DNA of 64,000 nt from an uncultured Alphaproteobacteria bacterium (lineage in GTDB: Bacteria; Pseudomonadota; Alphaproteobacteria; CADEGL01): contig CADEGL010000008.1 of the NCBI GenBank assembly GCA_902826885.1, forward strand, positions 10,819-74,818. The letters run 5' to 3'. Positions 12,422-41,352 of this stretch are shown here, one piece after another; position 1 is the first letter of the stretch; every line of letters starts with the position of its first letter. The notes below the pieces were generated by a model, which saw only the letters and a program-made list of their open reading frames with translations, had not been told where the DNA came from and ran no database searches. Position numbers and translations under genes: made by a program.

Positions 12422-13357
12422 CTAGACCGGCGACTTGGCCGGCGCGTCCCAATAGGGGCTGGGCCCGAACCGGTCGGCCAGAAAATCCACGAACACGCGC
12501 ACCTTGGCCGTCAGGTGCCGGCTATGCGGATAGACGGCGTAAACCGATGCGCGGTTGGGCAGATAGTCGCGCAGCACCTCCTTCAGCCGTCCGGCCTGCA
12601 CGTCGGGACCGACGATGAAGGACGGCAGCACCGCGACACCCAATCCGGCCAAGAGCGCCTGGCGGATCGCATCGCCGTTGTTCGCACGCAGATTACCGTG
12701 CACCGAAACCGAGCGCGTGCCTTCGCCGTCGATGAACTGCCATTGGTCGGTGTCGGACACATACGCGTAGCTGAGGCAGTTGTGCGCGGCCAAGTCGTCA
12801 GGCGTGCGCGGCTCGCCATGCTTGGCGAAATAAGCCGGCGCGCCACAAAGTATGCGCCGGTCGGGCGCCAAGCGCCGCGCGATCAGGCTGGAATCGGTCA
12901 GCCGCGCGATACGGATCGCGACATCGAAACCCTCATCGATCAAGTCCACGAAACGGTCGTTCATGGTCATATCCACGCGCACCTCGGGATGGCGTGCGAG
13001 GAAATCGGGGATCGCCGGCGCGATATGCAGATGGCCGAAGGTCATCGGCGCGTTGACCCGCAAGGTGCCGCGCGGTTCGGACTGCAGGTGCGTGACCGCC
13101 AGCTCCGCCTCCTGCGCCTCGGCCACCACGCGCGCGCAGCGGTCATAGAAGGCGGCGCCCGTTTCCGTGAGGCTCAGGCGGCGGGTGGTCCGATTCAAAA
13201 GCCGCGCGCCCAGCCGATCCTCCAGGCGCGTGATCTGCTTCGAAACGGCGGATTTCGACATGCCCAGTTCGGCCGCGGCGGCCGTGAAACTGCGCGCCTC
13301 CACCACTTTGGCAAACACCGCCATGCCGGCCAGGCTGTCCAACGGCGCCAAGGTCAT
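12422..13357 (-). CDS. LysR-family transcriptional regulator
   Basis: N-terminal HTH (FAKVVEARSFTAAAAELGMSKSAVSKQITRLE) with a LysR substrate-binding fold. Divergent from wrbA. Confidence 0.9.
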   Translation of the reverse strand: MTLAPLDSLAGMAVFAKVVEARSFTAAAAELGMSKSAVSKQITRLEDRLGARLLNRTTRRLSLTETGAAFYDRCARVVAEAQEAELAVTHLQSEPRGTLRVNAPMTFGHLHIAPAIPDFLARHPEVRVDMTMNDRFVDLIDEGFDVAIRIARLTDSSLIARRLAPDRRILCGAPAYFAKHGEPRTPDDLAAHNCLSYAYVSDTDQWQFIDGEGTRSVSVHGNLRANNGDAIRQALLAGLGVAVLPSFIVGPDVQAGRLKEVLRDYLPNRASVYAVYPHSRHLTAKVRVFVDFLADRFGPSPYWDAPAKSPV

Positions 13358-13487
13358 TAGCTATCCTTTGGAAACAATACTTCTCCATCTAACGCATTTT
13401 TTCGCCAAACGGGAACACCTATCTATCCGGTGAATACGAACCGCCGCGGCGGATTCCCCACAGCCCAGTCCATTCAAGGAGACGGTC

Positions 13488-14090
13488 ATGGCCAAGATTC
13501 TGGTCCTTTACTACAGCATGTACGGTCATATCGAGGCGATGGCGGAGGCCGTAGCCGAGGGCGCCAAAGGCGTGGCTGGCGTCGAAGTCACCGTAAAACG
13601 CGTGCCCGAATTGGTGCCCACCGAGGTGCTGGAAAAAGCCGGCGCGAAGGCGGATCAGAAAGCCCCGCTGGCCACGGTGGCGGAATTGGCGGAATACGAT
13701 GCCATCATTTTCGGCACGCCGACCCGTTTCGGAAACATGGCCGCGCAGATGCGCAACTTCCTCGACCAGACCGGCGGCTTGTGGGCCAAGGGTGCCCTGA
13801 TCGGCAAGGTCGGCAGCGTCTTTGCCTCGACAGCAACCCAGCATGGCGGACAGGAAACGACGATCACGTCGTTCCACAGCACGCTGCTGCATCACGGCAT
13901 GGTCATCGTGGGCGTGCCTTACAATTGCGCGGGGTTGACCAAAATGGATGAGGTCACGGGCGGCAGCCCTTACGGCGCGACCACGCTGGCAGGCCCCGAT
14001 GGCAAGCGCCTGCCCAGCGAGAACGAGCTGGAGATCGCGCGCTTCCAAGGCAAACACGTGGCCGAACTGGCCAAGAAGCTGACGGCATGA
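13488..14090 (+). CDS. wrbA: NAD(P)H:quinone oxidoreductase WrbA (flavodoxin-like)
   Basis: [26 protein letters not shown]..., [18 protein letters not shown], and a strong RBS AAGGAGA. Confidence 0.92.
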
Positions 14091-14268
14091 TGGGCCTAGT
14101 GTCGGTTCTGGCTATCTCATGCTTTCGAGAGGCTCGGTACCGGGCGAAGGTTTAAGTGCCAAGGATGGTCGGAGCTTCCTCATCCACGTGGCGGGCGGCG
14201 GCGGAAAGCCGCAAGATGGTGTCGCCGCCCACGCACCCGGCGGCTCATGAAGAATGGGAGAGAACGAT

Positions 14269-14739
14269 ATGACCGAAAAGGTCGACCGCTCCAAATTGAT
14301 CATTCCCGCCGTAGCGCCCCTCTACGAAGGGCTTAGCTGCATCGCCTACCCGTTGATGCGCGTCGTCGTCGGCGGCTTCCTCGTTCCGCATGGCATGCAA
14401 AAGCTGTTCGGCGCGTTCGGCGGTGGCGGCATCGAAGGCACCACGGCCGGCTTCGCCAAGATGGGGCTGGAACCCGCGCCGCTCTTAGCCGTTCTAGCAG
14501 GCGGCACGGAATTTTTCGGCGGTATCCTGATCCTGCTGGGGCTGTTCACGCGCGTGGCCGCGGCAGGCGCCGTGATCCTACTGCTCGTCGCCGCGATCCA
14601 TGTTCACTACGCCAACGGCTTTTTCGCCGGCAAGGGCGGCTACGAGTTCGCGCTCCTGTGGGCGGTGATGGCGTTCTACGTCTTCGTGCGCGGCGGCGGG
14701 CACTGCTCGATCGACCGTAAGATCGGCAAGGAGTTCTGA
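14269..14739 (+). CDS. DoxX-family membrane protein
   Basis: RBS GGGAGAG 6 nt upstream. Four TM helices. DoxX-like GGFLVPHGMQKLFG. Confidence 0.8.
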   Translation: MTEKVDRSKLIIPAVAPLYEGLSCIAYPLMRVVVGGFLVPHGMQKLFGAFGGGGIEGTTAGFAKMGLEPAPLLAVLAGGTEFFGGILILLGLFTRVAAAGAVILLLVAAIHVHYANGFFAGKGGYEFALLWAVMAFYVFVRGGGHCSIDRKIGKEF

Positions 14740-14771
14740 ATGGCGTCGCGGCGGCGCGTGAGAATCATGGC

Positions 14772-15554
14772 ATGACCAAGTGGCCCAGCATTTTCGTCGG
14801 CCACGGCAGTCCGGGCATGATCCTGGAGCGCGCCGCCGCGCGCGATTTTCTGAGCAGCCTCGGCAACCAACTCGGCAAGCCCAAGGCCATTCTGGTCGCG
14901 ACCGCCCATTGGGAGACCGGCGCACCCGCCATAGGCGCCGCCGATAAGCCGGAGACGATCCACGATTTCTTCGGCTTCCCGCAGGAACTCTACCGCATCG
15001 TGTACGCGGCATCCGGGGCGCCCGAAATTGCCACGCGCGCGCAGGCGCTTCTGAACGGCGCGGGCTTCGACGCGACGCTCGACCACGCACGCGGGCTCGA
15101 CCATGGCGCCTGGTCGCCGCTTTATCTCATGTATCCCGGCGCGGATGTGCCGGTGTTGCAAATATCGCTGCAATCCCATCGCGGGACCGGTTATCACCTC
15201 TCCATCGGCCGCGCGCTCGAACCCCTGCGCGAGGAAGGCGTGCTGGTGATGGGCAGCGGCGCCATCACGCACAATCTGCGCGACTTCGGACGATATGATC
15301 TCAACGACCCGCCCGTCACCTATGCCGCCGAGTTCGATTCGTGGGTGCGCGACGCTGTCACGCGCGGCGATGCCGATGCCGTGGTGGATTATCGCCAGCG
15401 CGCGCCCCATGCCACGCGCAACCAGCCCAGCGAAGAGCATTTCCTGCCCTTGCTGGTCGCCATGGGGGCCGGCGGCGAAGGTGCGAAGGCACGCACGCTG
15501 CACGCGGGCTTTACCTATGGATTCCTGTCCATGGCGTCCTACGCGTTCGACTAG
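14772..15554 (+). CDS. Class III extradiol ring-cleavage dioxygenase (LigB/YgiD/DODA type)
   Basis: SIFVGHGSPGMILE, HWETGAP, VLVMGSGAITHNLRDF. Confidence 0.85.
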   Translation: MTKWPSIFVGHGSPGMILERAAARDFLSSLGNQLGKPKAILVATAHWETGAPAIGAADKPETIHDFFGFPQELYRIVYAASGAPEIATRAQALLNGAGFDATLDHARGLDHGAWSPLYLMYPGADVPVLQISLQSHRGTGYHLSIGRALEPLREEGVLVMGSGAITHNLRDFGRYDLNDPPVTYAAEFDSWVRDAVTRGDADAVVDYRQRAPHATRNQPSEEHFLPLLVAMGAGGEGAKARTLHAGFTYGFLSMASYAFD

Positions 15555-15648: not shown

Positions 15649-17172
15649 GTGACCGCCACCGCCCCTTCCCTGGCCCAGGAGTCCGCCGCGCCAACGGGCA
15701 TCGCGAAGGCTCTTCAGGTCACCACCGGCGTTTTCTGCACGCATCTCTATCTACTGGCCATGTCGGGCGCGAGCATGGCGCTGCCTCACATGCAGGGTGC
15801 GTTTTCCGCCGGGCCCGACCAGATCGCCTGGGTCGTAACGGCCTTCATCGTCACGGTCGCCATGACGAACGCCTGCGCCGGCTGGCTGACCGACCATCTG
15901 GGCCGCCGCAGACTGCTGTTGATCTGCGTCGTCGGCTTCACCCTGTCCTCGGTCCTGGTCGGCCTGACCGAAAGCCTCGAGGCCGCGGTGCTGGCGCGCG
16001 TGCTGCAAGGCATGTTCTGCGCGCCCTTGGCGCCGCTCGGCCAAGCCATCGCGGTGGACGCGTGGCCACGCAACCGGCAGGCCATGGCCACCTCGGTCTG
16101 GAGCATGGGTGCCTTGTGGGGCTCCTTCATCGCGCCGCTCGCGGGCGGCTATCTGGCCGAGAATCTGAGCTGGCAGTGGGTTTTCTACATGCCCGTGCCG
16201 ATCGGAATCCTCACCTTCGTCACCGGTTGGCTGTCCGTGCATGACAGGACCGAGCGCGGCCACAGCTATCTGGACTGGCTCGGCTTCTCCACCCTCGTGC
16301 TGTCGATCGGCTCATTGATGTATGGGCTCTCGCGCGGCGAGCGGCTGGACTGGTTCGCATCCGGCGAGATCATCGCCGCCGCCTGCATCGCGGTCTTGGC
16401 CTCCTATGTCTTCGTCGCCCGCATGATGATGGCGCGGCGTCCCTTCATTCCCATGAGCCTGTTCAAGGACCGGAACTATACGGTCGCACTGCTCTTCATC
16501 TTCATCTACGGCAACTACAACTATCTGCCGATCTTCGTGCTGCCCATCATTCTGACCAGCGTGATGGGGCTGACGCTGCCCGTGGTCGGTGCGCTGATCG
16601 CCGTACGCAGCTTCGGCTCCTTCGCCAGCATGCTGATCGTGGCACCGCTCTCGGACCGGGTGAACATGCGCGTCTGGCTGATCGCCGGCTTCCTCGCCTT
16701 GATGGTGCCGTTCTGGATGATGGCGCGCTGGGGCATCGATCCGTCGTGGAGCGCGATCGTCATCGCCATGTTCCTGCACGGCTTCGGTTCCAGCATGCCT
16801 TATATCGGCATCAGCGCGGCGGCGTTCTCGACCTTGCCGGTCGAACTTCGCAGCCAGGGCATGAGCCTGTTGCATCTGACCAACAACATGGGCGTCGCCA
16901 TCGGCACCACGGCCATATTCGCGCTTCTGGCGCGCGAAATGCAGACCAGCTATTCCGCGCTGGCGCAGTTCGTGAGCCCCTACAACGAGGCTATGCAGGC
17001 CGGAAGTGCGCGCGGCACGGTCCACTTGCACGATGCCCACGGCCTGGCTTCGCTCGGCGCCGAGGTGAGCCGTCAGGCCACCATGGTGGCTTTCAACTCG
17101 ACGCTTCAGATCGCTGCGTATCTCGGACTTATCATCCTGCCGCTTCTATTTTTTGCCCGCGTGCGGCATTAA
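15649..17172 (+). CDS. MFS transporter, DHA2 (EmrB/QacA-like, 14-TMS) family
   Basis: About 14 predicted TM helices. MFS motif region TDHLGRRRLLLICVVGF. GTG start. Confidence 0.8.
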   Translation: MTATAPSLAQESAAPTGIAKALQVTTGVFCTHLYLLAMSGASMALPHMQGAFSAGPDQIAWVVTAFIVTVAMTNACAGWLTDHLGRRRLLLICVVGFTLSSVLVGLTESLEAAVLARVLQGMFCAPLAPLGQAIAVDAWPRNRQAMATSVWSMGALWGSFIAPLAGGYLAENLSWQWVFYMPVPIGILTFVTGWLSVHDRTERGHSYLDWLGFSTLVLSIGSLMYGLSRGERLDWFASGEIIAAACIAVLASYVFVARMMMARRPFIPMSLFKDRNYTVALLFIFIYGNYNYLPIFVLPIILTSVMGLTLPVVGALIAVRSFGSFASMLIVAPLSDRVNMRVWLIAGFLALMVPFWMMARWGIDPSWSAIVIAMFLHGFGSSMPYIGISAAAFSTLPVELRSQGMSLLHLTNNMGVAIGTTAIFALLAREMQTSYSALAQFVSPYNEAMQAGSARGTVHLHDAHGLASLGAEVSRQATMVAFNSTLQIAAYLGLIILPLLFFARVRH

Positions 17173-17182: not shown

Positions 17183-18142
17183 TCAGCCCTTCACCCAGTC
17201 CTTGTTCGCGCGCAGCGCCTTGATGATGGCGACCAGATTCTTGTCCCGTGCGCGCGACAGCTCCGTATAGGACTTGCCTTCGGCCATCCGCTCGCACGCC
17301 TCGATCACCTTCGTCTTCATTTCCGGCGTCAGCTTGGGCGAAAGCAATTTGCTCCACACGCTGGCCTTCTCCATGTCGAAATGCTGGAAGAAGCCGCGCA
17401 TGCCACCTTCGCCGCCCGCCATGTGCATGTGGACGAACGACCCCATCATGGCCCAGCGCAGGCCGGGCCCCTGGCGGATCGCCGCATTGATCTGCTCGGG
17501 TGTCGCGATGCCGTCCTGCACCATATGCAGCGCCTCGTGCCACATGGCCTGTTGCAGCCGGTTGGCGATATGGCCCGGCGCCTCCTTGAGCATCTTGATC
17601 GCGTAGTGGCCGTTGCGGTTGTAGAAGTCGCAGGCCCAATCGACCGCCCACTCCGCCGTATTCTTGCCGCCGCACACCTCGACCAAGGGCACGATGTGGG
17701 GCGGATTGAACGGATGGCCGATCACCGTGCGCTCCGGATGGATGCTCTCCTTCTGGATATCGCTCATGATGAAGCCGGAGGTCGAGGACGAGATCACGAT
17801 GTCCTTCGGCGCGGCTTCTTCGATTTGCGGTAAGAGCTTGACCTTGATCTCCAGCTTCTCGGGCGCGCTTTCCTGGATGAAGTCGGCGTCCTTCACCGCG
17901 TCGCCGATCGAGGTGCCGAATTTAAGGCGCGCGCGAGACGCGCCAGGTGCCAAGCCCAGTTCCTCCAGGAACGGCCACGCCTGGTCTAAAAGCCGGTGCA
18001 GCTTGGCCTCGGCCTTGGGGTCGGGGTCCTGGACCGAGACGTCGAAGCCCTTAGCCAGGAAATGCGCGGCCCAGCCGCCGCCCATCAGTCCCGTGCCCAC
18101 GCAGGCCACGCGGCGCACTTTGTCGGGTGTCGGTCGAGCCAT
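17183..18142 (-). CDS. L-carnitine dehydrogenase family protein (3-hydroxyacyl-CoA dehydrogenase fold)
   Basis: VACVGTGLMGGGWA (Rossmann fold), DADFIQESAPE, HPERTVIGHPFNPPHIVPLVEV, GPGLRW. Confidence 0.85.
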   Translation of the reverse strand: MARPTPDKVRRVACVGTGLMGGGWAAHFLAKGFDVSVQDPDPKAEAKLHRLLDQAWPFLEELGLAPGASRARLKFGTSIGDAVKDADFIQESAPEKLEIKVKLLPQIEEAAPKDIVISSSTSGFIMSDIQKESIHPERTVIGHPFNPPHIVPLVEVCGGKNTAEWAVDWACDFYNRNGHYAIKMLKEAPGHIANRLQQAMWHEALHMVQDGIATPEQINAAIRQGPGLRWAMMGSFVHMHMAGGEGGMRGFFQHFDMEKASVWSKLLSPKLTPEMKTKVIEACERMAEGKSYTELSRARDKNLVAIIKALRANKDWVKG

Positions 18143-18159
18143 CGTTCGTTCCCTTTCTT

Positions 18160-19311
18160 TCAGCCCGTCTTCAGATCCGGCGGCGGGGTGCGGGCAACCG
18201 CGTCGCGGTGGGCCTCGTCGGCCAAGGCGTCGATATTCTCCTGACGCTGGGCGGCGGCGGCCTCGTCATAGAGGAACGGCAGGAAGCAGAAGCGCCGCCC
18301 GCGCGTGATCGGCCACACTTCGTGCAGGACCGAGCAGGAGAACACCACGGCGCCGCCCGTGGTCGCGCGATACATGCGCGTGTCGTACTCGGGAAAGCGC
18401 AAGTCGCCGCCCTCGTATTCCTCGGCGTTCAGATTGATGGTGACGGCGAAGCGGCGGTGCGCTGTGCCCTTGGTCGTATCGTCGCGGTGGGCGCGGAAAT
18501 AGCCGCCGGTCCGCGAGTCGTAGCAGGCCACGATGTGCCGCTCGATGCGCGTCGCGGCGAACTGGAACACCTTGCGCACCTCGGGCACCAGGCGGCGCGC
18601 GATCTTGGCGTTGATGGTTTCCTGCAACGCCATGTCGCGGATGGGGCAGTCGGCTCGGCGCTTGAAGCCGTGGTCGATGGTCGAGACGGTCTTACCGCTG
18701 GCGGGGTCCGTGCGCATGAAGCCGCTGTCCTCGCCGCCCTCCTTCTCGTACAGGGCGATCAGCTCGCGGCAGAACTCTTTTTCGAACACGTTGGGCACGG
18801 CCAGGACCGGCGCGCCCGGGCCGGCCATGGAGCGATCGTCGGACGCCGGTTGCGCGTCGACAACGGCCAGAAGCTCCGCCGCATGGCGCTCCGGCTCGCC
18901 GATCTTCAGCATGGCCAACACGCGCAAGGTGCGGTCCAACACCAGCGAGAACGGACGATAGGCACCCGCCTTTTCGCAGGCGCCATAGAGCATGCTGAGC
19001 TGCCTCCGGTAGTCCAGGAACAGCCGTGCGCCCGGTCTGCGCTCGGCCAGACGGCCGTCCTTCACATCGGCGGGATCGCAGGTGACGACGAACAGCGAGG
19101 CACGGACGTCATTGTACGCGCGCTCGCAGGAAATCATCTCGGCCGCCATGGCGCGCAGCCGATCGTCCTTGGCCGAGCCCAGGAAGGTCAGAACGACGTA
19201 ACGGCCGCCCGCGATGTTGAAATGGAAATCCTGCCGCTCGGCCGTCGGCGCGACGAACCACGGCACCGGATCGCCGGGGCTGAAGGTCCGGGGCTTCTTC
19301 TGCTGCGCCAT
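18160..19311 (-). CDS. Fe(II)/2-oxoglutarate-dependent oxygenase (prolyl-4-hydroxylase-like) with N-terminal Cys-less redoxin-like domain
   Basis: C-terminal AHRDDTTKG...NLNAEEYEGGDLRFPE...VLHEVWPITRGRR (HxD...H...R). The N-terminal PVPWFVAPTAERQDFHFNIAGGRYVVLTFLGS resembles a peroxiredoxin/thioredoxin fold without the catalytic Cys. Confidence 0.7.
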   Translation of the reverse strand: MAQQKKPRTFSPGDPVPWFVAPTAERQDFHFNIAGGRYVVLTFLGSAKDDRLRAMAAEMISCERAYNDVRASLFVVTCDPADVKDGRLAERRPGARLFLDYRRQLSMLYGACEKAGAYRPFSLVLDRTLRVLAMLKIGEPERHAAELLAVVDAQPASDDRSMAGPGAPVLAVPNVFEKEFCRELIALYEKEGGEDSGFMRTDPASGKTVSTIDHGFKRRADCPIRDMALQETINAKIARRLVPEVRKVFQFAATRIERHIVACYDSRTGGYFRAHRDDTTKGTAHRRFAVTINLNAEEYEGGDLRFPEYDTRMYRATTGGAVVFSCSVLHEVWPITRGRRFCFLPFLYDEAAAAQRQENIDALADEAHRDAVARTPPPDLKTG

Positions 19312-19360
19312 GCTCTGTTCGCGGCCGCGCGCGGATGCCGGTCCACGCGCGGCGCGCCGC

Positions 19361-20296
19361 CTAGAACGAGACCTTGTCGCCGCCCTTCAAGCCCAGCATC
19401 TGCCGTGCTTCGTCCGGCGTCGCGACCGAGAGCGACAAATCCTCGATGATGCGGCGGATCTTGGCGACCTGGGCCGCGTTCGATTCCGTCATCTGGCCCT
19501 TGCCCAGATACAGGCTATCTTCCATGCCCACGCGCACGCTGCCGCCCATGATCGCGTTCATGGTGCAGAAGGCCATCTGGTGACGCCCCGCCGCGAGGAC
19601 GGAGAAGTAGAAATCCTCGCCGAACAAGCGGTCGGCCGTGCGCCGCATGAAGACCAGATTGTCGTAATCCGGGCCGATGCCGCCCAGGATGCCAAAGATG
19701 CCCTGGATCAGGAACGGCGGCTTCACGAACCCGCGGTCGACCAGATAGGCCAGGCTGTAAAGATGGCCGACGTCGTAGCACTCGAACTCGAACTTGGTGC
19801 CGTGGCCGTCGCCCAGTTCCTTACAAATGCGTTCCATGTCGTGGAACGTGTTCTTGACCACGAAGTCCTTCGTGCTCTCGAGATACTTCTTCTCCCAGTC
19901 GTGCTTCCAATCCTTGAAGCGGTCGGCCGCTTGGAACAGGCCGAAATTCATCGAGCCCATGTTGAACGAAGTCATCTCGGGCGAGGCCGCCTTGGGTGCG
20001 GCCAGGCGTTCGTCGAGCGTCATGCCCATGCCGCCGCCCGTGGTGATGTTCACCACCGCGTTGCAGTTCTGCTTGATGCGCGGCAGGAACTCCATGAACA
20101 CGCCCGGGTCCGGCGTCGGCTTGCCGTTCTTGGGATCGCGCGCGTGCAGATGGATGATGGCTGCGCCCGCTTCCGCCGCCGCGATGGACGCCTCGGCTAC
20201 CTCGGTCGGGGTGATCGGCAGGTGCTTCGACATGGTCGGCGTGTGCACGGAGCCCGTGACCGCGCAGGTGATGATGACTTTATCGGTTTTCTTCAC
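19361..20296 (-). CDS. BKACE-family beta-keto acid cleavage enzyme (DUF849; 3-keto-5-aminohexanoate / dehydrocarnitine cleavage enzyme type)
   Basis: VIITCAVTGSVHTPTMSKHLPITPTEVAEASIAAAEAGAAIIHLHARD, and the TIM-barrel BKACE signature. Confidence 0.88.
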   Translation of the reverse strand: MKKTDKVIITCAVTGSVHTPTMSKHLPITPTEVAEASIAAAEAGAAIIHLHARDPKNGKPTPDPGVFMEFLPRIKQNCNAVVNITTGGGMGMTLDERLAAPKAASPEMTSFNMGSMNFGLFQAADRFKDWKHDWEKKYLESTKDFVVKNTFHDMERICKELGDGHGTKFEFECYDVGHLYSLAYLVDRGFVKPPFLIQGIFGILGGIGPDYDNLVFMRRTADRLFGEDFYFSVLAAGRHQMAFCTMNAIMGGSVRVGMEDSLYLGKGQMTESNAAQVAKIRRIIEDLSLSVATPDEARQMLGLKGGDKVSF

Positions 20297-20386: not shown

Positions 20387-20614
20387 CTAGCCCCTGCTAT
20401 CCTTGATGCATTGGGCGACGTATTTTTCCCACTCGAAGCTCTTCAGCCCCTTGTCCGTCGCCGCGTCCTCGCAATCCGCGACGGTCCGGTCGCTGACCGT
20501 GACCGCCTGTGGATCGGCCTGCCATGGCGCGGCGTGGGATAAGGCCGTGAGCGCCAGGATCGCGCCTGATACCAAGGCCGTGCCAAGGACAGTGGATCGA
20601 ATCGGAGTTCTCAT
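20387..20614 (-). CDS. PsiF-repeat small secreted protein
   Basis: Signal peptide ...ALTALSHA. Motif C-x(5)-A-x(3)-LK-x-FE-x-EKY-x(3)-C-IK matches the PsiF repeat. Confidence 0.65.
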   Translation of the reverse strand: MRTPIRSTVLGTALVSGAILALTALSHAAPWQADPQAVTVSDRTVADCEDAATDKGLKSFEWEKYVAQCIKDSRG

Positions 20615-20821
20615 TTAATTGCTGCCCTTCGCGCAAGATTTGATGAACTTCTCGCGCTCGAAACCTTTGAGTTTCTTCGCATCCGCCGTGTCGGTGCATT
20701 CTTGAATGCGGCGGTCGCTGACCGACGTCGCGTACGGGTCCACGTGCCATGGCATGGCCTGCGCAGCCGTGGCCAGGGTCAGGCCCGGAACGATGGCAGC
20801 GAAAAACAGGGCCAGCTTCAT
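20615..20821 (-). CDS. PsiF-repeat small secreted protein (tandem paralog)
   Basis: Signal peptide MKLALFFAAIVPGLTLATAAQA. ...CTDTADAKKLKGFEREKFIKSCAK. The TAA stop abuts the ATG of the downstream paralog. Confidence 0.6.
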   Translation of the reverse strand: MKLALFFAAIVPGLTLATAAQAMPWHVDPYATSVSDRRIQECTDTADAKKLKGFEREKFIKSCAKGSN

Positions 20822-20952
20822 GACCATCCGCTCACACGCGTTATGACCCGCCGATTCTCGCAAGCGCCCCTTGGTATCGCAAGGCCCGCGAACCTAGGCA
20901 AATCCCCGCATGGGCGCTGGAGCGGCACGGCGCATTCCGCCATCATGCGGCC

Positions 20953-22635
20953 ATGATCGAATATGATTTCCTCGTCATCGGCGGCGGATCGGCGGGCGCC
21001 ACCATGGCTGGCCGTCTGTCCGAATCGGGCAGCAGCACCGTCCTCCTGGTCGAAGCAGGACCGGACACGCCGCCGGGCGGAGAGCCCAAGAGCGTCTTGG
21101 ATTCCTATCCCGGCGTGGCCTACTTCGACCCGCGCTATCACTGGTCGAAGCTGCGCGTGTTCCTGGAGCAGGGCAGCGCCATCCCGCGCCGCTTCGAGCA
21201 AGCCAAGATCATGGGTGGCGGCTCCAGCATCAACGGCACCTTCGCCATCCGCGGCCTGCCCGCCGATTACGACACATGGGCGGCGCTGGGCGCGAGCGGC
21301 TGGTCCTTCGCCGACTGCCTACCCTTCTTCAAGAAACTGGAACGCGATCTCGATTTCGACGGACCCGTGCACGGCAAGGGTGGGCCGATTCCCATCCGGC
21401 GCGTGAAGTTCGAGGACTGGCCCGGCTTTTCGCGCGCGGTCGGTGACGGGCTGAGCGGGCGCGGCGTGCCCTTCCGCCCCGATCACAACGGCACGGCGGA
21501 GGACGGATGGTTCTCCATGCCGATCAACAACGAGAACGACCATCGCGTCTCGACGGCGATGGCCTATCTGGATGCGACGGCGCGCAAGCGCCCCAATCTG
21601 CGAATCTTCGCCGAGACCATGCTGGAGCAGCTCACCTTCGACGGGAAACGCTGCACGGGCGCCGTCCTGATCCGCCCCAACGGACGCGAGACAGTGGCCG
21701 CGCGCCGGGTCATCATCTGCGCGGGCGCGCTCCATTCACCCGCCATCCTCCTGCGCGCGGGCATCGGGCCCGCTGCGGAAATCCATCAGCACGGCATTTC
21801 CGTACTGCACGAACTGCCGGGCGTCGGACGCAATCTGATGGAGCATCCGACCGTGGCCTTGGGGGCGCATTTGCGCCGCGCGGCGCGTCAGCCGCGCGGT
21901 ATGGGCCGCCACATCATGCTGGGCTGGCGCTATTCCTCCGGCCTCGAGGGCTGCACGCCCGGCGACATGCACGTCCTGGCCATCAACCGCGCGGGCTGGC
22001 ATCCGCTGGGCCGACGCCTGGGCTCTCTGATCTGCGCGTGCAACATCTCCTACTCGCGCGGCTCGGTGAGCTTGCGCTCCCGCGCGGCGGAGGACGAGCC
22101 TGCCGTTCATTTCAACTTCTTCTCCGACCGCCGCGACTTGGCGCGGCTGGTTCAGGGGATGAAGCGGATGTACACCGTGATGACCACACCGCAGGTGCAG
22201 GCTTCGGTCACCGAAATCTTCCCCACCAGCTATACCGAGAGAGCGCGCGACATCGCCATCGTCTCCGCGGGCAACTGGCTGCGCACGGCCATGGGCGCGG
22301 CACTGATCGATTCAGGCGACGCGGGACGCCGTTATATGGTTCACCGCAAGATCAGCCCGGACATCGACATCCACGCGTTAGTGCGCAACGACAAGGCATT
22401 GGAGCAATGGGTGCGCGAAAAAGCCTATGGCGGCTGGCATGCCAGCGGCACCTGCCGCATGGGCGCCGACGGCGACCCCATGGCCGTGCTGGACTCGTCG
22501 TGCCGGGTCCGCGGAATCGAGAATCTGCGCGTGGTCGACGCCTCCGCCATGCCGTCCATCCCGGCCGCCAATACCAACATCACCACCATCATGATGGCCG
22601 AGAAAGTGGCCACCATGATCCGCGCGGGCGAATGA
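20953..22635 (+). CDS. GMC-family FAD-dependent oxidoreductase (choline dehydrogenase-like)
   Basis: YDFLVIGGGSAGATMAGRLSE (FAD-binding GxGxxG), and a C-terminal GMC catalytic region ...GTCRMG... Confidence 0.9.
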   Translation: MIEYDFLVIGGGSAGATMAGRLSESGSSTVLLVEAGPDTPPGGEPKSVLDSYPGVAYFDPRYHWSKLRVFLEQGSAIPRRFEQAKIMGGGSSINGTFAIRGLPADYDTWAALGASGWSFADCLPFFKKLERDLDFDGPVHGKGGPIPIRRVKFEDWPGFSRAVGDGLSGRGVPFRPDHNGTAEDGWFSMPINNENDHRVSTAMAYLDATARKRPNLRIFAETMLEQLTFDGKRCTGAVLIRPNGRETVAARRVIICAGALHSPAILLRAGIGPAAEIHQHGISVLHELPGVGRNLMEHPTVALGAHLRRAARQPRGMGRHIMLGWRYSSGLEGCTPGDMHVLAINRAGWHPLGRRLGSLICACNISYSRGSVSLRSRAAEDEPAVHFNFFSDRRDLARLVQGMKRMYTVMTTPQVQASVTEIFPTSYTERARDIAIVSAGNWLRTAMGAALIDSGDAGRRYMVHRKISPDIDIHALVRNDKALEQWVREKAYGGWHASGTCRMGADGDPMAVLDSSCRVRGIENLRVVDASAMPSIPAANTNITTIMMAEKVATMIRAGE

Positions 22636-22639
22636 TCCC

Positions 22640-23650
22640 ATGAGGCGCCGCACCTTCCTGGCCGTCATCGCCGTGGCGCTAATGGCGGCCACCGCGATCG
22701 CGCTGGCGCCCGACTGGCGGAAAACCTTCGATCCGCTTCCGTCCTGGAACGAAGGAACCGCGAAGCACGGCATCATCAATTTCGTGCGGCGCGCCGTGAC
22801 CGAGGGTGGGCCAGACTACATCCCGCCCGACAAGCGCATCGCCACCTTCGACAACGACGGCACGCTGTGGGTAGAGCAGCCGGTCTATCCCGAGGCCGTG
22901 TTCGTCTTCGACCGCATGAAGGCGCTGGCGCCGCAACACCCGGAATGGGCAGATGTCGAGCCCTTCAAATCGGCGCTCGCGGGCGATTATGACGCCGTCG
23001 CCCGGCAAGGCGACGCGGCCTTCCAGACGCTGGCCGTCGCCGTCGGATCTGGCCTGAGCGACGCCGCCTTTGAGCAGACGATCGTCCAGTGGCTCGAGAC
23101 CGCCCGTCATCCGCGCTTCGACCGGCCCTACACGGAGCTGGCCTACCAGCCCATGCTGGAGCTCTTGTCCTATCTACGCGACAACGGCTTCAAGACCTTC
23201 ATCGTCTCCGGCGGCGGCATCGAATTCCTGCGCGCCTTCGCCGAGAAGACATACGGCATTCCGCCCGAGCAGGTGATCGGCTCGACCGTCGCCCTGTCGT
23301 TCCGGATGGACGGCGGCGTGCCGGCTCTCCTGCGTCTCGATCGCGCGACCGCGATGGACGTGGGACCAGTAAAGGCCCAGCGCATCGGAATCGTGATCGG
23401 CCGCCGCCCGGTCTTCGCGGCGGGCAACTCGGACGGCGACCTCGAGATGCTGCAATGGACGACCATGACCAGCGGCCCGCGCTTCGGCATGCTGGTGCAT
23501 CACACCGACGCCGACCGCGAATATGCCTATGACCGCGCCTCCGCCATCGGCCATCTGGCGGAGGCGCTGGATCAGGCGCCGGAGCGCGGCTGGATCGTGG
23601 TCGACATGAAACGCGACTGGCGCACGGTCTTCGGGTTCGAGAACAACTAG
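22640..23650 (+). CDS. Secreted HAD-superfamily hydrolase (phosphatase-like)
   Basis: Signal peptide. HAD motif I FDNDGTLW. ...GNSDGDLEML (motif IV). Confidence 0.75.
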   Translation: MRRRTFLAVIAVALMAATAIALAPDWRKTFDPLPSWNEGTAKHGIINFVRRAVTEGGPDYIPPDKRIATFDNDGTLWVEQPVYPEAVFVFDRMKALAPQHPEWADVEPFKSALAGDYDAVARQGDAAFQTLAVAVGSGLSDAAFEQTIVQWLETARHPRFDRPYTELAYQPMLELLSYLRDNGFKTFIVSGGGIEFLRAFAEKTYGIPPEQVIGSTVALSFRMDGGVPALLRLDRATAMDVGPVKAQRIGIVIGRRPVFAAGNSDGDLEMLQWTTMTSGPRFGMLVHHTDADREYAYDRASAIGHLAEALDQAPERGWIVVDMKRDWRTVFGFENN

Positions 23651-24420
23651 GGCTTCTTGGCCATCCGCGCCTCGGCGGGGCAGCCGGGCGAGCGCTTACG
23701 TGCGATGTATTCGTCGATGATCTCGGTATAGCGGTCGCGGCCGAAGCTGGCGTAATGCCCGCCATGAACTGCGGTCACGGGTACCTTTCGCAGCCGCTCG
23801 ACGCTGATCAGGAACTGGTCTTCGACCGTGTGATAGAGGATCAGCTTGCCGATGCCGTTGGCGCCGTTATGGACGACGTCGCCCGAAAATAGGATGCCGG
23901 TCTTTTCTTCATAGAGCGCGATCGAGCCCGGCGAATGGCCGGGGATGTGCAGCACCTCGAAGGCGCGGTCGCCGAGATCGACCACGTCGCCTTCGATCAG
24001 CGTGCGCGTCGCGGGCGCGGCCTTCACCTCGTAGTCGGCGGCCGAAAAGCCGACCGGCTTTTCGCCCTCGAACATCTCGTCGACGACATACGGATCGGCC
24101 ACGGTGTTGAGGCGCGTCGGGCGGGCCATGATTTCGGCCTCGGCGGCGTGGATATGGCGGTGACCGAATTCGAAATGGCCGCCCACATGGTCGCAATGGC
24201 TGTGGCTGCCCACGGCCAGGACGGTGCGCTCATTCAGTTCGGGGATGGAATCGAGAAGACTGACCAGGCCAAAGCCCGTGTCCACCAGCATGTCGCGGTC
24301 GCGCCCGCGCACATGCCAGATGTTGCAGCGGTAATCGGGCTTGATTCGCGCTTCCCAGAATAGGGTGACGCCATCGCCCACCGATCGGGATTGGAACCAG
24401 CCGTCCGCGTAAGAGCCCAT
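23647..24420 (-). CDS. MBL-fold metallo-hydrolase
   Basis: HSHCDHVGGH metal-binding motif. Confidence 0.85.
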   Translation of the reverse strand: MGSYADGWFQSRSVGDGVTLFWEARIKPDYRCNIWHVRGRDRDMLVDTGFGLVSLLDSIPELNERTVLAVGSHSHCDHVGGHFEFGHRHIHAAEAEIMARPTRLNTVADPYVVDEMFEGEKPVGFSAADYEVKAAPATRTLIEGDVVDLGDRAFEVLHIPGHSPGSIALYEEKTGILFSGDVVHNGANGIGKLILYHTVEDQFLISVERLRKVPVTAVHGGHYASFGRDRYTEIIDEYIARKRSPGCPAEARMAKKP

Positions 24421-24471
24421 CGCTGCCCTCCGTTTTACCGGAGGGCAGGATAGGGCGTCAGGACGCTGCGG

Positions 24472-25293
24472 TCACTCGCCCTTGAAGTTGGGCACGCGGT
24501 CGTCGAACCAGGCGTTGGTGCCCTCGATCGAGTCCTTGGAGAACGAGGCCTTGAGGTAATACTCGCTCTCGAACATCAGCACCTCGTCCAAGGGCGCTTC
24601 GGTTGCTTTGTCGATCATCTCCTTGTGGAAGCGGACGGAGATGGGCGCGCGGCTGGCGATGACGTCGGCCATTTTCTTAGCTTCCTCGCGCTCCTTGCCA
24701 ACCGGCGTCACGCGATTCACGAGGCCGATGCGGTGCGCTTCGACCGCCGGCCACCATTCGCCGAGATAGGCGATCTCACGCGCGCGCGCGATACCCACCT
24801 TCTGGGCCAGCATCTTGGTCGTGCCGTTCGTCATGGTGATGCTGAGCGTCACCTCGGGGCAGCCGAACTGCGCGTTCATCGACGCCACGACGAGATCGCA
24901 GCCGATGCAGATCTCCGTACCGCCGCCGACGCACCAGCCCTGCACAGCCGCGATCACCGGGAACGGCACCTGGCGGATCAGGCGCGTCACGCGCTGGGCC
25001 ACCTGCTGCCAAGCAAAGAGCTGCTCCTTCGAGACCGAACCGTCGGCGATGCCCTGCGAATGCTCGCGAATCTCTGTCACATCATGGCCGGCCAGGAACG
25101 ACGAGCCGTTGGCGGCAATGATCAGGCAGCGGATGTTCTTGTCCTTGCCCAGCGCCTCGATGGCGTCGCCGGCCTCTTCCCACATCACCATGGTGAAGGC
25201 GTTGGACTTCTTGGGCCGGTTGAAGATCACCCAGGCCACATGGCCTTCCTTCTTGGTGATGATCAGGCCGCTCTTGGAGGCTGTCTCGCTCAT
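24472..25293 (-). CDS. Enoyl-CoA hydratase/isomerase (crotonase) family protein
   Basis: VAWVIFNRPKKSNAF, IIAANGSSFLAGHDV, ...AAVQGWCVGGG... Confidence 0.9.
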   Translation of the reverse strand: MSETASKSGLIITKKEGHVAWVIFNRPKKSNAFTMVMWEEAGDAIEALGKDKNIRCLIIAANGSSFLAGHDVTEIREHSQGIADGSVSKEQLFAWQQVAQRVTRLIRQVPFPVIAAVQGWCVGGGTEICIGCDLVVASMNAQFGCPEVTLSITMTNGTTKMLAQKVGIARAREIAYLGEWWPAVEAHRIGLVNRVTPVGKEREEAKKMADVIASRAPISVRFHKEMIDKATEAPLDEVLMFESEYYLKASFSKDSIEGTNAWFDDRVPNFKGE

Positions 25294-25321
25294 GGCACTC
25301 TCGTTGTTCGGGTGAAAACCG

Positions 25322-26941
25322 TCATCGCTTCAGCTTGACGCCCGCCTTCTCACGGTCCCAGGTCGTGGGCGTGAGGCCGCGTTCGCGCAGCGGGAACTTC
25401 TGGATCTTGCCGGTCGGCGTCTTGGGCAGGGCGTCGATCATGTCGACGTAGCGCGGGATCATGAAATAGGCCATGCGCGGCTCGAGGAAGCGGATCAGCT
25501 CCACCGGGTCGACCGTCATGCCCTGCTTGGGCACGATCACGGCCATGACCTCCTGCTCGGTATGCACGGATTCCGCCGGGATCACCGCGCATTCCAGAAT
25601 GGCCGGATGCTTGACGATCTCCTGCTCCACCTCCATCGACGAGATGTTTTCGCCGCGGCGGCGGATGGCGTCCTTGGTGCGGTCGACGAAGTAGTAATTC
25701 CCATCCTCGTCGCGCATCAGCATGTCGCCCGTGTGATACCAGAGGTTCCGCCACGACTTGACCGTCCAGTCGGGGTGGTTCCAGTAGCCGAGCGTCATGT
25801 CCCACGGGTTCTTGGTGCGCACGCACATCTCGCCCGGCATGTTGGGCGGAACCTCCTCGTCGTTCTCGTCGACGAGGCGGACCTCGTAGCGGTCGAGGAG
25901 CGGGCGTCCGCAGGTGCGGTTGTTGACCAAATCGAAGCCCGAGCGCATGGGACAATTCTGCTCGGTGCCGCCATAGGTGGTCGAGACGCGCACGCCGAAG
26001 CGCGTCTTGAAATCCTCGACCTCGGGCAACAGCGGCACGACGATGATGCGGTCCATCGTATTGTCCGCGTCGTTCGGCAGCGGCGCCTGGCGGTAGAGGA
26101 AATTGGCCATGGCACCCAAGAGGAACGAGATCGTGGCCTTGTATTTGCGCACGTCGTTCCAGAATTCGGTCAGCGAGAAGGTGCCGGTCAAGACCGCCGT
26201 GCATTCGGCGATCATGCAGGCATAGACCACGGCCCACTGACCCGCGATGTGGAACATGGGCAAGGGCGCGTAATAGATGTCGTCCGGCTCCATCTCCAGA
26301 AGCTCGACCGCCACCACCGCGTACTCATACGCATGGGCGTGGCAGTTCATGGAGCCCTTGGACGGTCCAGTCGTGCCCGAGGTGTACATGACGCCCATGA
26401 TGTCGCGGTAAGTCGGGCCGGGTTCTTTCAGCGCCGATTCGTCTGCGTCGAACAGTTTCTCGAAGCGCAGCTCTTCCAGGCGGCCGGAAAGGCTCGCGGG
26501 TAGGCCCGGCTCCTTACCGCTGGTATCTTTGCTGTAGAGGACGAGGCGCTTCAGGTCCTTCAGGTCGCCCTGCACGAATTCGATGCGGTCGAGATACTGC
26601 CGGTCCACGATCATCGTGCGGGCCAGCGAGTCGTTCACGATGTGAGCGAAGACCGTGCCCTTGGCGTGATTGTTCACCGGCACCTCGATGGCGCCGATCT
26701 TGGCCAGCGCGCACCAGGCCAGGATGTAGTCGATCGTGTCGGGCAGCATGATCAGCACGGTGTCGCCGTGCTTGATGCCTTGCTTGAGGAAGCCGCGCGC
26801 CAGCGCGTTCGAGCGCTCGTCCATCTCGCGGTAGGAATAGGCCCGCTCCGCCGTGACGATCCACGGCTTGTCGCCAAGCTTGTCGGCGCGCCGTTTCAGC
26901 ACCTCCTTCAAGGTGCGTTCTTTCCGCGGCTCCAGGGCCAT
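25322..26941 (-). CDS. AMP-dependent synthetase/ligase (acyl-CoA ligase)
   Basis: YTSGTTGPSKG (AMP-binding motif), ...PKTPTGKIQKF. Confidence 0.9.
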   Translation of the reverse strand: MALEPRKERTLKEVLKRRADKLGDKPWIVTAERAYSYREMDERSNALARGFLKQGIKHGDTVLIMLPDTIDYILAWCALAKIGAIEVPVNNHAKGTVFAHIVNDSLARTMIVDRQYLDRIEFVQGDLKDLKRLVLYSKDTSGKEPGLPASLSGRLEELRFEKLFDADESALKEPGPTYRDIMGVMYTSGTTGPSKGSMNCHAHAYEYAVVAVELLEMEPDDIYYAPLPMFHIAGQWAVVYACMIAECTAVLTGTFSLTEFWNDVRKYKATISFLLGAMANFLYRQAPLPNDADNTMDRIIVVPLLPEVEDFKTRFGVRVSTTYGGTEQNCPMRSGFDLVNNRTCGRPLLDRYEVRLVDENDEEVPPNMPGEMCVRTKNPWDMTLGYWNHPDWTVKSWRNLWYHTGDMLMRDEDGNYYFVDRTKDAIRRRGENISSMEVEQEIVKHPAILECAVIPAESVHTEQEVMAVIVPKQGMTVDPVELIRFLEPRMAYFMIPRYVDMIDALPKTPTGKIQKFPLRERGLTPTTWDREKAGVKLKR

Positions 26942-38498: not shown

Positions 38499-38882
38499 CT
38501 ATCCCCGCTTGATTTTCTCGACCGTCCGCAACGCCCCCAGGCCGAGCATTCCCGCCATGAGCTCCCAGAGTCCCGAGTCCAAGGACGGCGGCGGAGGCAC
38601 GGAAATTCCGTTCCAGGCCGCGATCCAAGTGCCGAGCGGTACCAGAAGATACTGATAGGCGAGCGCCGCCGCGCAGCACCAACCGATGGCGGGGCGCCAG
38701 CCGGCGACGAAGAGCGAGGCGTTCTTGGCCTCCTCGGCGTTCACCTCCATCTGCTTCAGATCGGCCGCGGCCAGTTGCGCCAGCGTTTCGCGCAGGGCGC
38801 GCTCGCGTGTGGCGGGGTCGGGCAACACGGCACCCAATACGCGGTCGAGGATGGGCACCAGGGCGGCGATCAGCGCGGGCAT
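38499..38882 (-). CDS. Phage holin (3-TM, GTA-release-type family)
   Basis: The N-terminus MPALIAALVPILDRV... and FVAGWRPAIGWCCAAALAYQYLLVPL resemble the Holin_3TM family. The ATG directly follows the endolysin TAG stop. Confidence 0.65.
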   Translation of the reverse strand: MPALIAALVPILDRVLGAVLPDPATRERALRETLAQLAAADLKQMEVNAEEAKNASLFVAGWRPAIGWCCAAALAYQYLLVPLGTWIAAWNGISVPPPPSLDSGLWELMAGMLGLGALRTVEKIKRG

Positions 38883-39863: not shown

Positions 39864-39873
39864 GACAAAGCTT

Positions 39874-41322: not shown

Positions 41323-41352
41323 GGGTTCCTCGTCGAATGGGGGCGCGTTTAA

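Follow-up and report, generated by a model that had tools for sequence, protein, structure and literature searches.

A P4H-type oxygenase gene with a peroxiredoxin-fold domain lies between BKACE and dehydrogenase genes in a narrow group of uncultured Alphaproteobacteria

[quoted passage not shown] GC3 of the three genes was 0.87–0.89 and dN/dS across their orthologues was 0.04–0.21, indicating that all three are real genes. The coordinates, strand and 17–49 nt spacers given in an initial annotation were reproduced by the ORF check, and Pfam and NCBIfam agreed with its domain calls, namely a BKACE, a 2OG oxygenase of P4H type that carries a non-catalytic thioredoxin-fold domain, and an LcdH-family DH. 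Terminator prediction gave no call within the operon on the minus strand, which together with the short spacers implies co-expression. Folding of a 76-nt segment covering the longer spacer (19300–19375, minus strand) gave an MFE of −41 kcal/mol (z = −2.0), and the stem is kept, with a variable loop, in loci L001, L002, L006, L089 and L090. No clear Shine-Dalgarno sequence was found ahead of the oxygenase ATG. Tight spacing of this kind, with the co-expression that it implies, is a classic hint of shared function and speaks against the oxygenase being a mere hitch-hiker.

Table 1. Position and character of the features at the BKACE–oxygenase–DH locus
Feature	Position in window	Strand	Description
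DHA2/EmrB-type MFS transporter	15649..17172	+	convergent; TIGR00711 282 bits vs cut-off 230
LcdH-like NAD-dependent 3-hydroxyacid dehydrogenase (DH)	17183..18142	-	319 aa, unfused
Oxygenase, whole gene	18160..19311	-	383 aa; between BKACE and DH
Oxygenase catalytic domain, ~residues 168-360	18232..18810	-	P4H-type double-stranded beta-helix; H275-x-D277...H330, R340
Oxygenase N-terminal domain, ~residues 10-155	18847..19284	-	BCP/peroxiredoxin fold without peroxidatic Cys
BKACE-oxygenase spacer	19312..19360	-	49 nt; GC-rich stem-loop without U-tract
BKACE (beta-keto acid cleavage enzyme)	19361..20296	-	311 aa; GTG start; GGGAGGG before start
Two tandem small secreted PsiF-like ORFs	20387..20863	-	90 nt upstream of BKACE

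Up to about 7 kb away, the annotated neighbours are a DHA2 efflux MFS transporter, LigB, DoxX, a WrbA-like protein, LysR, PsiF-like proteins, a GMC-family protein, HAD, MBL, ECH and an acyl-CoA ligase. The MFS gene was also present in L001, L002, L006, L089 and L090 and was absent from L083 and L084, where LigB comes directly after DH. One of the two PsiF-like ORFs (20615–20863) matched PsiF_repeat with 21.7 bits and the other had no Pfam match; both may be co-transcribed with BKACE.

The BKACE matched Pfam PF05853 over its full length (343.6 bits against a cut-off of 24.8, profile positions 1–274) and contains an HxH motif (H49, H51) and E259 within GMEDS. By analogy to Kce (Bellinzoni 2011), these three residues are candidate Zn ligands. 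The protein also passed the NCBIfam equivalog NF053538 (3,5-dioxohexanoate:acetyl-CoA acetone transferase) with 520.8 bits against a cut-off of 430, and its relatives scored 518–547. The closest solved relatives, both matching over the full length, are 3E02 (461 bits), which comes from structural genomics and bears only the name 'uncharacterized protein DUF849', and BKACE15 (8RIO/8RIP/9HNF; 358 bits), an engineered enzyme that has a Zn site in a TIM barrel; such substrates as are known for these proteins are non-native, and neither is reported to be linked in a genome to an oxygenase of the P4H type. At 55–70% identity, members of the NF053538 subfamily lie in contexts as different as Bdh with SBP, acyl-CoA synthetase, sugar ABC transporter, and VOC with cyclase, suggesting that the NF053538 label is unlikely to fix the physiological substrate.

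The DH matched 3HCDH_N (138 bits) and 3HCDH (49 bits), with a Rossmann motif at G16–G23 and candidate catalytic residues H143, E155 and N194. Its best NCBIfam match was L-carnitine dehydrogenase NF005471 (327.4 bits, E = 8e-98), below the cut-off of 414, and all paralogues in the locus family likewise scored about 300–327; NF005716 gave 300 bits against a cut-off of 592. The NCBIfam models ranked LcdH (327), PRK06129 (222), FHMPC-DH (160) and Hbd (126), and the top PDB matches were free-acid dehydrogenases (4OM8 and the lambda-crystallins 3ADO/3F3S), with Hbd/HADH entries ranking lower. Judged by sequence, the DH is a member of the free-acid 3HCDH superfamily (LcdH/lambda-crystallin/FHMPC-DH clade) and not of the acyl-CoA type. 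The second LcdH-like gene expected at 59155 was also found, at 59155–60102.

The oxygenase matched PF13640 (2OG-FeII_Oxy_3) over residues 261–344 with 42.9 bits against a cut-off of 27; together with this score, the HxD...H triad, the basic 2OG-binding residue and the DSBH fold identify it as P4H-like and Fe(II)/2OG-dependent. Known gamma-butyrobetaine hydroxylases are TauD-type. No TauD-family Pfam match was obtained for the oxygenase at E ≤ 0.001; besides PF13640, only AhpC-TSA was matched, over residues 12–128 and below threshold (21 bits vs 26). The peroxidatic P-x-x-x-T/S-x-x-C motif was absent from the N-terminal domain and from every family member examined, and this lack of a peroxidatic Cys, together with a Pfam score under the gathering threshold, implies that the domain is not a peroxidase. 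The domain had been described as a 'Cys-less' thioredoxin fold, which is right for the missing T/S-x-x-C motif and wrong for cysteine as such, since C62, C78 and C112 are present. BCP-type peroxiredoxins (5ENU, 5EPF, 3DRN) serve as the comparison for the fold, the oxygenase family differing from them in having no peroxidatic Cys.

The closest structural relatives of the oxygenase were mostly protein hydroxylases. Among the P4H-class relatives are PiuC/YbiX (9QN0, 3DKQ), the Pseudomonas EF-Tu prolyl hydroxylase (4IW3), a viral collagen P4H (5C5T) and the mimivirus and human lysyl hydroxylases; identity to these is only 15–24%, and none of them has an N-terminal peroxiredoxin-fold domain. Assignment as a PiuC/YbiX PKHD-type hydroxylase was rejected, as the NCBIfam score was 41.9 bits against a cut-off of 143 and the PDB sequence E-value was only 3.6e-4. 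The family itself is very large (more than 7,500 matches), strongly conserved, and ranges from Alphaproteobacteria to Cyanobacteria and Planctomycetes.

With dN/dS of 0.07–0.21, the oxygenase evolves under purifying selection. It retains all family-invariant residues; L10F is the sole clade-specific change at conserved columns, and none falls in the active site. Its identity to outgroup members was 52–53%, compared with 52.4% for the stand-alone member P0008, so that it has not evolved faster than members that stand alone. In these sequence comparisons, the oxygenase shows no sign of neofunctionalisation. Its dN/dS was 2–4 times that of its neighbours (in L089, 0.20 vs 0.05–0.09), an observation compatible with some adaptation and, to that extent, at odds with simple hitch-hiking.

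In a comparison of gene order across genomes, the complete BKACE–oxygenase–DH order was seen only in the window, L001, L002, L006 and L089. Incomplete loci consistent with it are L090, which has a partial BKACE, and L080–L082, whose contigs are identical to the window and hold oxygenase and DH only. The order is confined to loci whose oxygenase is at least 78% identical to that of the window (range 78–94%). In L003, the oxygenase falls inside this close clade (85%) and is followed by an alpha/beta hydrolase instead of DH. BKACE and DH are directly adjacent, with no oxygenase, in L083, L084 and L100. Relatives with a BKACE 84–88% identical show adjacent BKACE and DH genes followed by LigB-DoxX-Pirin-LysR; a contig with a DH 81% identical to that of the window reads [BKACE?]-DHa-DHb-LigB and has no oxygenase, nor was one found on the P0242 contig. 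The window shares the flanks of these relatives (LigB, DoxX, LysR; AMP-ligase, ECH, MBL) and has the oxygenase and MFS genes in addition. Because BKACE and DH are adjacent in the nearest oxygenase-free relatives, the oxygenase and MFS genes are considered lineage-specific insertions, and the description of the oxygenase as 'interposed' holds in the sense that it was inserted into an older BKACE–DH pair. That the order survived divergence of the oxygenase down to 78% identity (L089, L090) speaks against a hitch-hiking gene.

Outside the close clade, none of about 70 oxygenase loci (36–56% identity) had a BKACE or DH within 6 kb, and none of 80 metagenome loci with a BKACE at 65–85% identity had the oxygenase. 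The three-gene co-conservation whose lack had been named in the initial annotation as grounds for refutation is thus lacking. Moreover, no neighbouring gene was common to more than 6 of the 72 oxygenase loci. By this result, no receptor gene is a conserved partner of the oxygenase; the test for PiuC/YbiX is linkage to one of the TonB-dependent type. The redoxin-fold/P4H-type oxygenases are an uncharacterised family with no conserved neighbours.

A free-acid 3HCDH-type DH combined with a BKACE is an established module, as in the caiX-cdhCAB carnitine operon (PMC5806209). Like the window, the Pseudomonas aeruginosa caiX-cdhCAB-hocS and Agrobacterium pAt carnitine loci place a free-acid 3HCDH-family DH beside a BKACE yielding acetoacetate and acyl-CoA, with BKACE first and DH downstream on one strand. 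In Clostridium scatologenes, TfD (3HCDH family) and TAL (BKACE) catalyse the last two steps of anaerobic phloroglucinol degradation (PMC10470551); they belong to the same two protein families and follow the same two-step logic, and 3,5-dioxohexanoate, the substrate in the TAL reaction, gives the NCBIfam model of the window BKACE its name. The proposal that DH and BKACE work like the carnitine LcdH and dehydrocarnitine-cleavage pair is therefore sound as regards the two-enzyme logic, which is common to carnitine and phloroglucinol catabolism.

The carnitine assignment itself fared differently. The reference was the BKACE of the Agrobacterium pAt locus, a locus recognised by gene context (GlxA regulator, BKACE, SBP, carnitine 3-dehydrogenase and ABC permeases). 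The window BKACE is only 31% identical to it and belongs to another NCBIfam equivalog, the Agrobacterium protein scoring 220 bits on NF053538; the two are thus placed in different subfamilies. In the test for L-carnitine dehydrogenase, the Agrobacterium carnitine 3-dehydrogenase scored 822 bits; it is 39% identical to the window DH, which remains under the cut-off. The annotated neighbourhood contained no thioesterase (separate or fused to DH), no CaiX/ABC or BCCT betaine transporter, no betaine/carnitine binding protein and no GlxA/CdhR-type regulator. Nor does the oxygenase occupy the place of a thioesterase, as had been supposed, since in cdhCAB the thioesterase-like gene comes after the dehydrogenase and not between BKACE and DH (PMC5806209). 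A carnitine or quaternary-amine operon, in which the oxygenase would be a non-canonical gamma-butyrobetaine-type hydroxylase acting upstream of carnitine dehydrogenation and dehydrocarnitine cleavage, could draw on the best NCBIfam match of the DH, on the JGI label 'carnitine 3-dehydrogenase' of its homologues and on two nearby genes. One is the expected GMC choline-dehydrogenase-like gene, present at 20953–22635; the other is an acyl-CoA ligase 5 kb upstream (25322–26941) weakly similar to crotonobetaine/carnitine-CoA ligase (278 bits vs a cut-off of 651). However, the GMC gene scored 307.8 bits on the BetA model, under the cut-off of 732, and is missing in the oxygenase-free relative L083. 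Given also the BKACE subfamily, the DH score, the missing thioesterase, transporter and regulator, the lack of a TauD match and the lack of co-conservation, the variant quaternary-amine pathway suggested initially, with the oxygenase feeding DH and BKACE, is not supported, and a carnitine operon is very improbable.

In the explanation we favour, and consider reasonably probable, two catabolic enzymes form an older module, and the oxygenase gene, which normally stands alone, became inserted between their genes in a single narrow lineage within the uncultured Alphaproteobacteria. By family chemistry, the LcdH-like DH would oxidise a free (S)-3-hydroxy carboxylic acid with NAD+ to a 3-keto acid, and the Zn-dependent BKACE would convert this and acetyl-CoA to acetoacetate and a shortened acyl-CoA. 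The substrate would not be carnitine; going by the BKACE subfamily, more likely candidates are neutral acids or oxo-acids akin to 3,5-dioxohexanoate. In structural terms the oxygenase belongs with the prolyl/lysyl hydroxylases, and it is predicted to be an intact Fe(II)/2-oxoglutarate-dependent hydroxylase; its peroxiredoxin-fold domain, predicted to be unable to act as a peroxidase, probably serves substrate binding or oligomerisation. The job of the oxygenase is most likely that of the thousands of stand-alone family members, and although probably transcribed together with BKACE and DH, it would not be a step in their pathway.

Alternatively, the oxygenase might have been recruited to hydroxylate a precursor acid (e.g., at C3) for DH and BKACE, or to act first on a side group, creating a new three-step route confined to this lineage. 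The same-strand packing with no internal terminator, the purifying selection on the oxygenase, the arrangement kept across six loci including the window, and the co-occurrence of the MFS gene with the insertion are consistent with recruitment; nevertheless, it is unlikely, as co-conservation is lacking outside one close clade, the oxygenase–DH link is broken in L003, the clade shows neither active-site changes nor rate acceleration, the nearest structural relatives mostly act on proteins, and the transporter is of an efflux and not an uptake type. Less likely still is capture of the oxygenase by the BKACE–DH operon specifically as a small-molecule hydroxylase making a 3-hydroxy acid (or 3-hydroxy betaine) for the other two enzymes, to which we give little credence. 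A rather doubtful possibility, though one ahead of such capture, leaves the oxygenase irrelevant and has the DH–BKACE pair convert 3-hydroxy-5-oxohexanoate to triacetate (3,5-dioxohexanoate) and then to acetoacetyl-CoA and acetoacetate. Exactly this chemistry is performed by TfD and TAL (PMC10470551), and the NF053538 equivalog was passed. However, the window differs from that system in lacking PGR and DPGC partners, with no phloroglucinol reductase or cyclase-family ring-opening enzyme in the annotated neighbourhood (10.9–27 kb), in coming from an aerobic-type alphaproteobacterium and in having an oxygenase gene between the two; in addition, the subfamily contexts are very diverse, and an adjacent DH is absent in most close BKACE relatives.

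As nothing ties the genes to carnitine and the oxygenase is normally stand-alone, the cluster is a curiosity of modest weight and does not amount to evidence for a new pathway. If insertion into an older module is the right explanation, it carries a caution: tight operon-like packing in one lineage should not be taken to mean that genes share a pathway when co-conservation is lacking, and neither should a 'carnitine dehydrogenase-like + BKACE' pair be read as a sign of carnitine catabolism. If capture as a small-molecule hydroxylase were true, it would offer a first lead to the function of a family with thousands of members and reveal carboxylic-acid beta-hydroxylation by an enzyme not of the TauD type. 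The lineage with the oxygenase inside a catabolic operon offers the sole genomic-context clue for this family, and a weak one; the redoxin-fold/P4H-type oxygenases look like an overlooked family of housekeeping hydroxylases that is worth biochemical attention.

[quoted passage not shown] The GC3 of the three ORFs was 0.87-0.89, compared with a window GC of ~0.65, and a scan for terminators gave no call on the minus strand within the cluster. The coordinates, spacers and Pfam families agree with the three packed genes described in the initial annotation, whose family-level naming was correct for all three. Two small PsiF-like secreted ORFs with signal-peptide-like N-termini (the PsiF-repeat match is to the second) precede BKACE in the same orientation, and a divergent GMC oxidoreductase, which scored below the BetA and MftG cut-offs, lies beyond them. 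Elsewhere in the window, the minus strand at 38499-48837 holds the remnant of a podovirus-like prophage, with genes for a major head protein (47974-48837; phrog_3437, 3.5e-83), a tail protein (42247-44277; phrog_376, 7.6e-221), an internal virion protein (41353-41826), the N-terminus of a tail fibre (39874-41322) and a holin (38499-38882).

Coordinates of the cluster, its surroundings and features of related loci
Feature	Sequence	Position	Strand	Details
LigB-type extradiol dioxygenase, DoxX, WrbA-like flavodoxin, LysR	window	12422-15554		
DHA2/EmrB-type MFS gene	window	15649-17172		convergent, at downstream end of cluster
DH ORF	window	17183-18142	minus	319 aa; Pfam 3HCDH_N + 3HCDH
Oxygenase ORF	window	18160-19311	minus	383 aa
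BKACE-oxygenase spacer	window	19312-19360	minus	GC-rich hairpin
BKACE ORF	window	19361-20296	minus	311 aa
PsiF-like pair	window	20387-20863	minus	tandem, abutting; 75 + 82 aa; 90 nt upstream of BKACE
GMC oxidoreductase, HAD-family protein	window	20953-23650	plus	signal-like N-terminus on HAD protein
Acyl-CoA ligase, enoyl-CoA hydratase, MBL-fold hydrolase	window	23647-26941	minus	upstream of BKACE
Second LcdH-like gene with flanks	window	58233-60910		convergent LysR and metallo-beta-lactamase (MBL)-fold gene
Second LcdH-like paralogue	window	59155-60102		
Acyl-CoA ligase, enoyl-CoA hydratase, MBL upstream of BKACE	L083	1-5454		
BKACE with VOC, FAD oxidoreductase and cyclase-family genes	L094	2811-7949		Burkholderia gladioli plasmid pls1
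Two tandem LcdH-like paralogues	P0242	1030-3035		JGI 3300071358; downstream of probable BKACE

The window BKACE scored 520.8 bits (cut-off 430) on the NCBIfam equivalog model NF053538, '3,5-dioxohexanoate:acetyl-CoA acetone transferase'. Assignment as a lysine-fermentation Kce was ruled out (NF052387, 227 bits against a cut-off of 382). The carnitine-type comparator, identified from gene context, was the Agrobacterium fabrum pAt locus, where a carnitine 3-dehydrogenase (822 bits; cut-off 592) and a BKACE share their neighbourhood with a GlxA-family regulator, a solute-binding protein and ABC permeases. This locus differs from the window in its BKACE subfamily: its BKACE is 31% identical to that of the window, with a long indel, and reached 220 bits on NF053538, indicating that the window BKACE lies outside the carnitine-locus subfamily. 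Plasmid-borne members of the window's own subfamily (55-70% identity) are found in very different contexts, namely DH-BKACE-3-hydroxybutyrate dehydrogenase in Azospirillum, BKACE-acyl-CoA synthetase in Sphingobium, VOC-FAD oxidoreductase-BKACE ... cyclase in B. gladioli and a sugar ABC transporter in Mesorhizobium, which cautions against equating the substrate named by NCBIfam with the physiological one. In the B. gladioli cluster (L094), the BKACE is 62% identical to the window's and the 'cyclase family' protein belongs to the family of the ring-opening enzyme of phloroglucinol degradation; this cluster could represent an aerobic triacetate-type pathway. The acyl-CoA ligase upstream of the window BKACE is PRK06155-like (519.6 bits, below the 722 cut-off), and BKACE likewise has a ligase in its vicinity in five further relative loci (L085, L103, L118, L121 and L125) and on the Sphingobium plasmid. 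BKACE may have its true pathway partner in the upstream ligase, hydratase and MBL group.

The top NCBIfam model for the DH was L-carnitine dehydrogenase, at 327 bits short of the 414 cut-off, and the DH is 39% identical to the Agrobacterium carnitine 3-dehydrogenase. Its nearest solved relatives are the free-acid enzymes FHMPC dehydrogenase and lambda-crystallin, ahead of acyl-CoA dehydrogenases. The sub-cut-off score and the free-acid structures suggest that the DH is an LcdH-family free-acid 3-hydroxyacid dehydrogenase rather than an LcdH equivalog. The second LcdH-like paralogue of the window scored 299 bits on the same model (cut-off 414), and no BKACE lies near it within its tabulated neighbourhood. 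The pairing of a 3HCDH-type free-acid dehydrogenase and a BKACE recurs as a module: carnitine catabolism uses this pair, in the operon caiX-cdhCAB (PMC5806209), and TfD and TAL form the same pair in the last steps of phloroglucinol degradation (PMC10470551).

The oxygenase had >7,500 matches among the 5.8 billion proteins searched, with a handful at 78-92% identity, one at 62% and then a broad plateau at 50-56% that includes Alphaproteobacteria, Cyanobacteria, Planctomycetota, Verrucomicrobiota and others; across the many phyla represented, the catalytic domain is ~62% identical. No characterised member of this peroxiredoxin-fold/P4H-type family was found. Among 79 fetched oxygenase loci (L001-L079), BKACE and DH flank the gene only in L001, L002 and L006, from uncultured alphaproteobacterial MAGs, whose oxygenases are 91-94% identical to the window's. 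Neither a BKACE nor an LcdH-like gene occurred within 6 kb of the oxygenase in any of ~70 loci at 36-56% identity, and conversely none of 80 metagenome loci with a BKACE at 65-85% identity carried the oxygenase, only ~11 of them having an adjacent 3HCDH-type gene. Co-conservation of the three genes, on which the initial annotation had made its proposal depend, is thus lacking. When every ORF lying up to 6 kb to either side of the oxygenase in 72 loci was clustered, no conserved neighbour emerged, the commonest cluster (a CysK/CBS-like gene) being present in 6/72, which indicates that the family behaves as a stand-alone gene. On the contig of the stand-alone family member P0008, a GMC gene adjoins the oxygenase; a GMC-oxygenase link was dropped because no homologue of the window GMC was found in the other oxygenase loci.

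BKACE homologue identities fall smoothly (98, 88, 84, 77, 76 ... 70%). In L083 and L084 (BKACE 88% and 84%), BKACE and DH are directly adjacent, with 3- and 87-nt gaps, and are followed by convergent LigB, Pirin and LysR genes, with DoxX after LigB in L084 only and the ligase, hydratase and MBL genes upstream in L083. In L085-L088 (72-76%), BKACE stands alone beside LigB-DoxX-LysR, and P0242 reads probable BKACE-DHa-DHb-LigB-DoxX-Pirin-LysR without an oxygenase. The window has the same frame, ligase/hydratase/MBL ... BKACE ... DH ... LigB-DoxX-(WrbA)-LysR; in addition, the oxygenase separates BKACE from DH, and the MFS gene separates DH from LigB. The oxygenase-free relatives with the same flanks imply that the oxygenase is a lineage-specific insertion. 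The BKACE-oxygenase-DH order was found in the window, L001, L002, L006 and L089, in L090 with a partial BKACE, and probably in P0006; in these loci the oxygenase is 78-94% and BKACE and DH are 92-97% identical to those of the window. The GMC and HAD genes are kept in the oxygenase-bearing L001, L002, L006 and L089 and missing in L083 and L084, indicating a further lineage-specific insertion. The BKACE-adjacent DHs of L083 and L084 are merely 56-58% identical to the window DH, and are therefore a different paralogue; the tandem paralogues of P0242, which share 81% and 64% identity with the DH of the window, suggest that the window and L083/L084 lineages each retained a different one of two tandem DHs. 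The LigB-to-LysR block, seen also in L100 and with Pirin in place of WrbA in relatives, adjoins BKACE in every examined relative at 72-88% BKACE identity, with or without DH or oxygenase. The cause may be either a gene order inherited from a common ancestor or a functional association.

The oxygenase matched Pfam 2OG-FeII_Oxy_3 (PF13640) at residues 261-344 (42.9 bits; cut-off 27), and AhpC-TSA below threshold at residues 12-128 (21 bits; cut-off 26). The residues H275-x-D277, H330 and R340 are invariant over the family alignment, and every aligned member reads F-(F/L)-G-S-A where peroxiredoxins have T/S-x-x-C, indicating that loss of the peroxidatic cysteine is a trait of the whole family and not peculiar to the window copy. 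These results bear out the earlier description of a P4H-type enzyme with a non-catalytic thioredoxin-fold domain; the three cysteines in that domain of the window protein are non-conserved or non-catalytic. An active peroxiredoxin was ruled out by the missing peroxidatic cysteine, and membership of PiuC/YbiX by the score (41.9 bits against 143) and the lack of a conserved TonB-receptor neighbour.

Pairwise dN/dS between the window and five orthologous loci was 0.07-0.21 for the whole oxygenase gene (N-domain, 0.07-0.28; catalytic domain, 0.05-0.13), 0.04-0.07 for BKACE and 0.04-0.11 for DH; the oxygenase is under purifying selection, yet constraint on it is weaker than on the other two genes. 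The mean identity of the inserted oxygenases to 16 distant family members was 52-53%, on a par with the stand-alone P0008 protein (52.4%) and the family internal mean (54.5%), and a single clade-specific substitution (L10F) fell on an otherwise conserved column. Both checks, of relative rate and of clade-specific substitution, were negative for neofunctionalisation, and there is thus no sequence sign of a newly acquired activity.

The hairpin in the BKACE-oxygenase spacer has a minimum free energy of -41 kcal/mol (z = -2.0) in a 76-nt segment spanning the spacer, and across five related loci its stem is conserved and its loop variable. No clear Shine-Dalgarno sequence precedes the oxygenase start. 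A terminator role was ruled out, as the hairpin has no U-tract and no terminator was called on this strand within the cluster. The insertion event may have left the hairpin behind, or the structure may tune expression or the stability of the mRNA at this junction.

Taken together, the data favour, with moderate confidence, a generic DH-BKACE module into which a local rearrangement brought an oxygenase that keeps its stand-alone family role. Judging from family chemistry, DH and BKACE would convert a free 3-hydroxy acid, other than carnitine, to acetoacetate and an acyl-CoA, and the oxygenase would be a Fe(II)/2OG hydroxylase that is still intact and does the same job as its stand-alone relatives, probably co-transcribed in the operon that it entered. 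Recruitment of the oxygenase into the DH-BKACE pathway would account for the tight packing and its persistence over moderate divergence, but gene order is the sole support for it, and L003 speaks against it: the oxygenase there nests in the window clade (85% identity over residues 120-366), yet the next gene encodes an alpha/beta hydrolase instead of the DH. We regard recruitment as unlikely.

The variant quaternary-amine pathway proposed in the initial annotation found no support, given a BKACE outside the carnitine-locus subfamily and a DH below the LcdH cut-off; with accessory genes also missing, a carnitine operon was rejected, and a true carnitine or quaternary-amine pathway is very improbable. 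Whether the substrate is 3-hydroxy-5-oxohexanoate/triacetate is a question separate from the role of the oxygenase; the NCBIfam name suggests it, and we consider it doubtful.

The generic module with an inserted oxygenase makes the operon itself a module of a familiar kind, of low novelty, whose arrangement is specific to one lineage. The stand-alone oxygenase family probably has a general function and, being large and well conserved, may be worth investigating in its own right.
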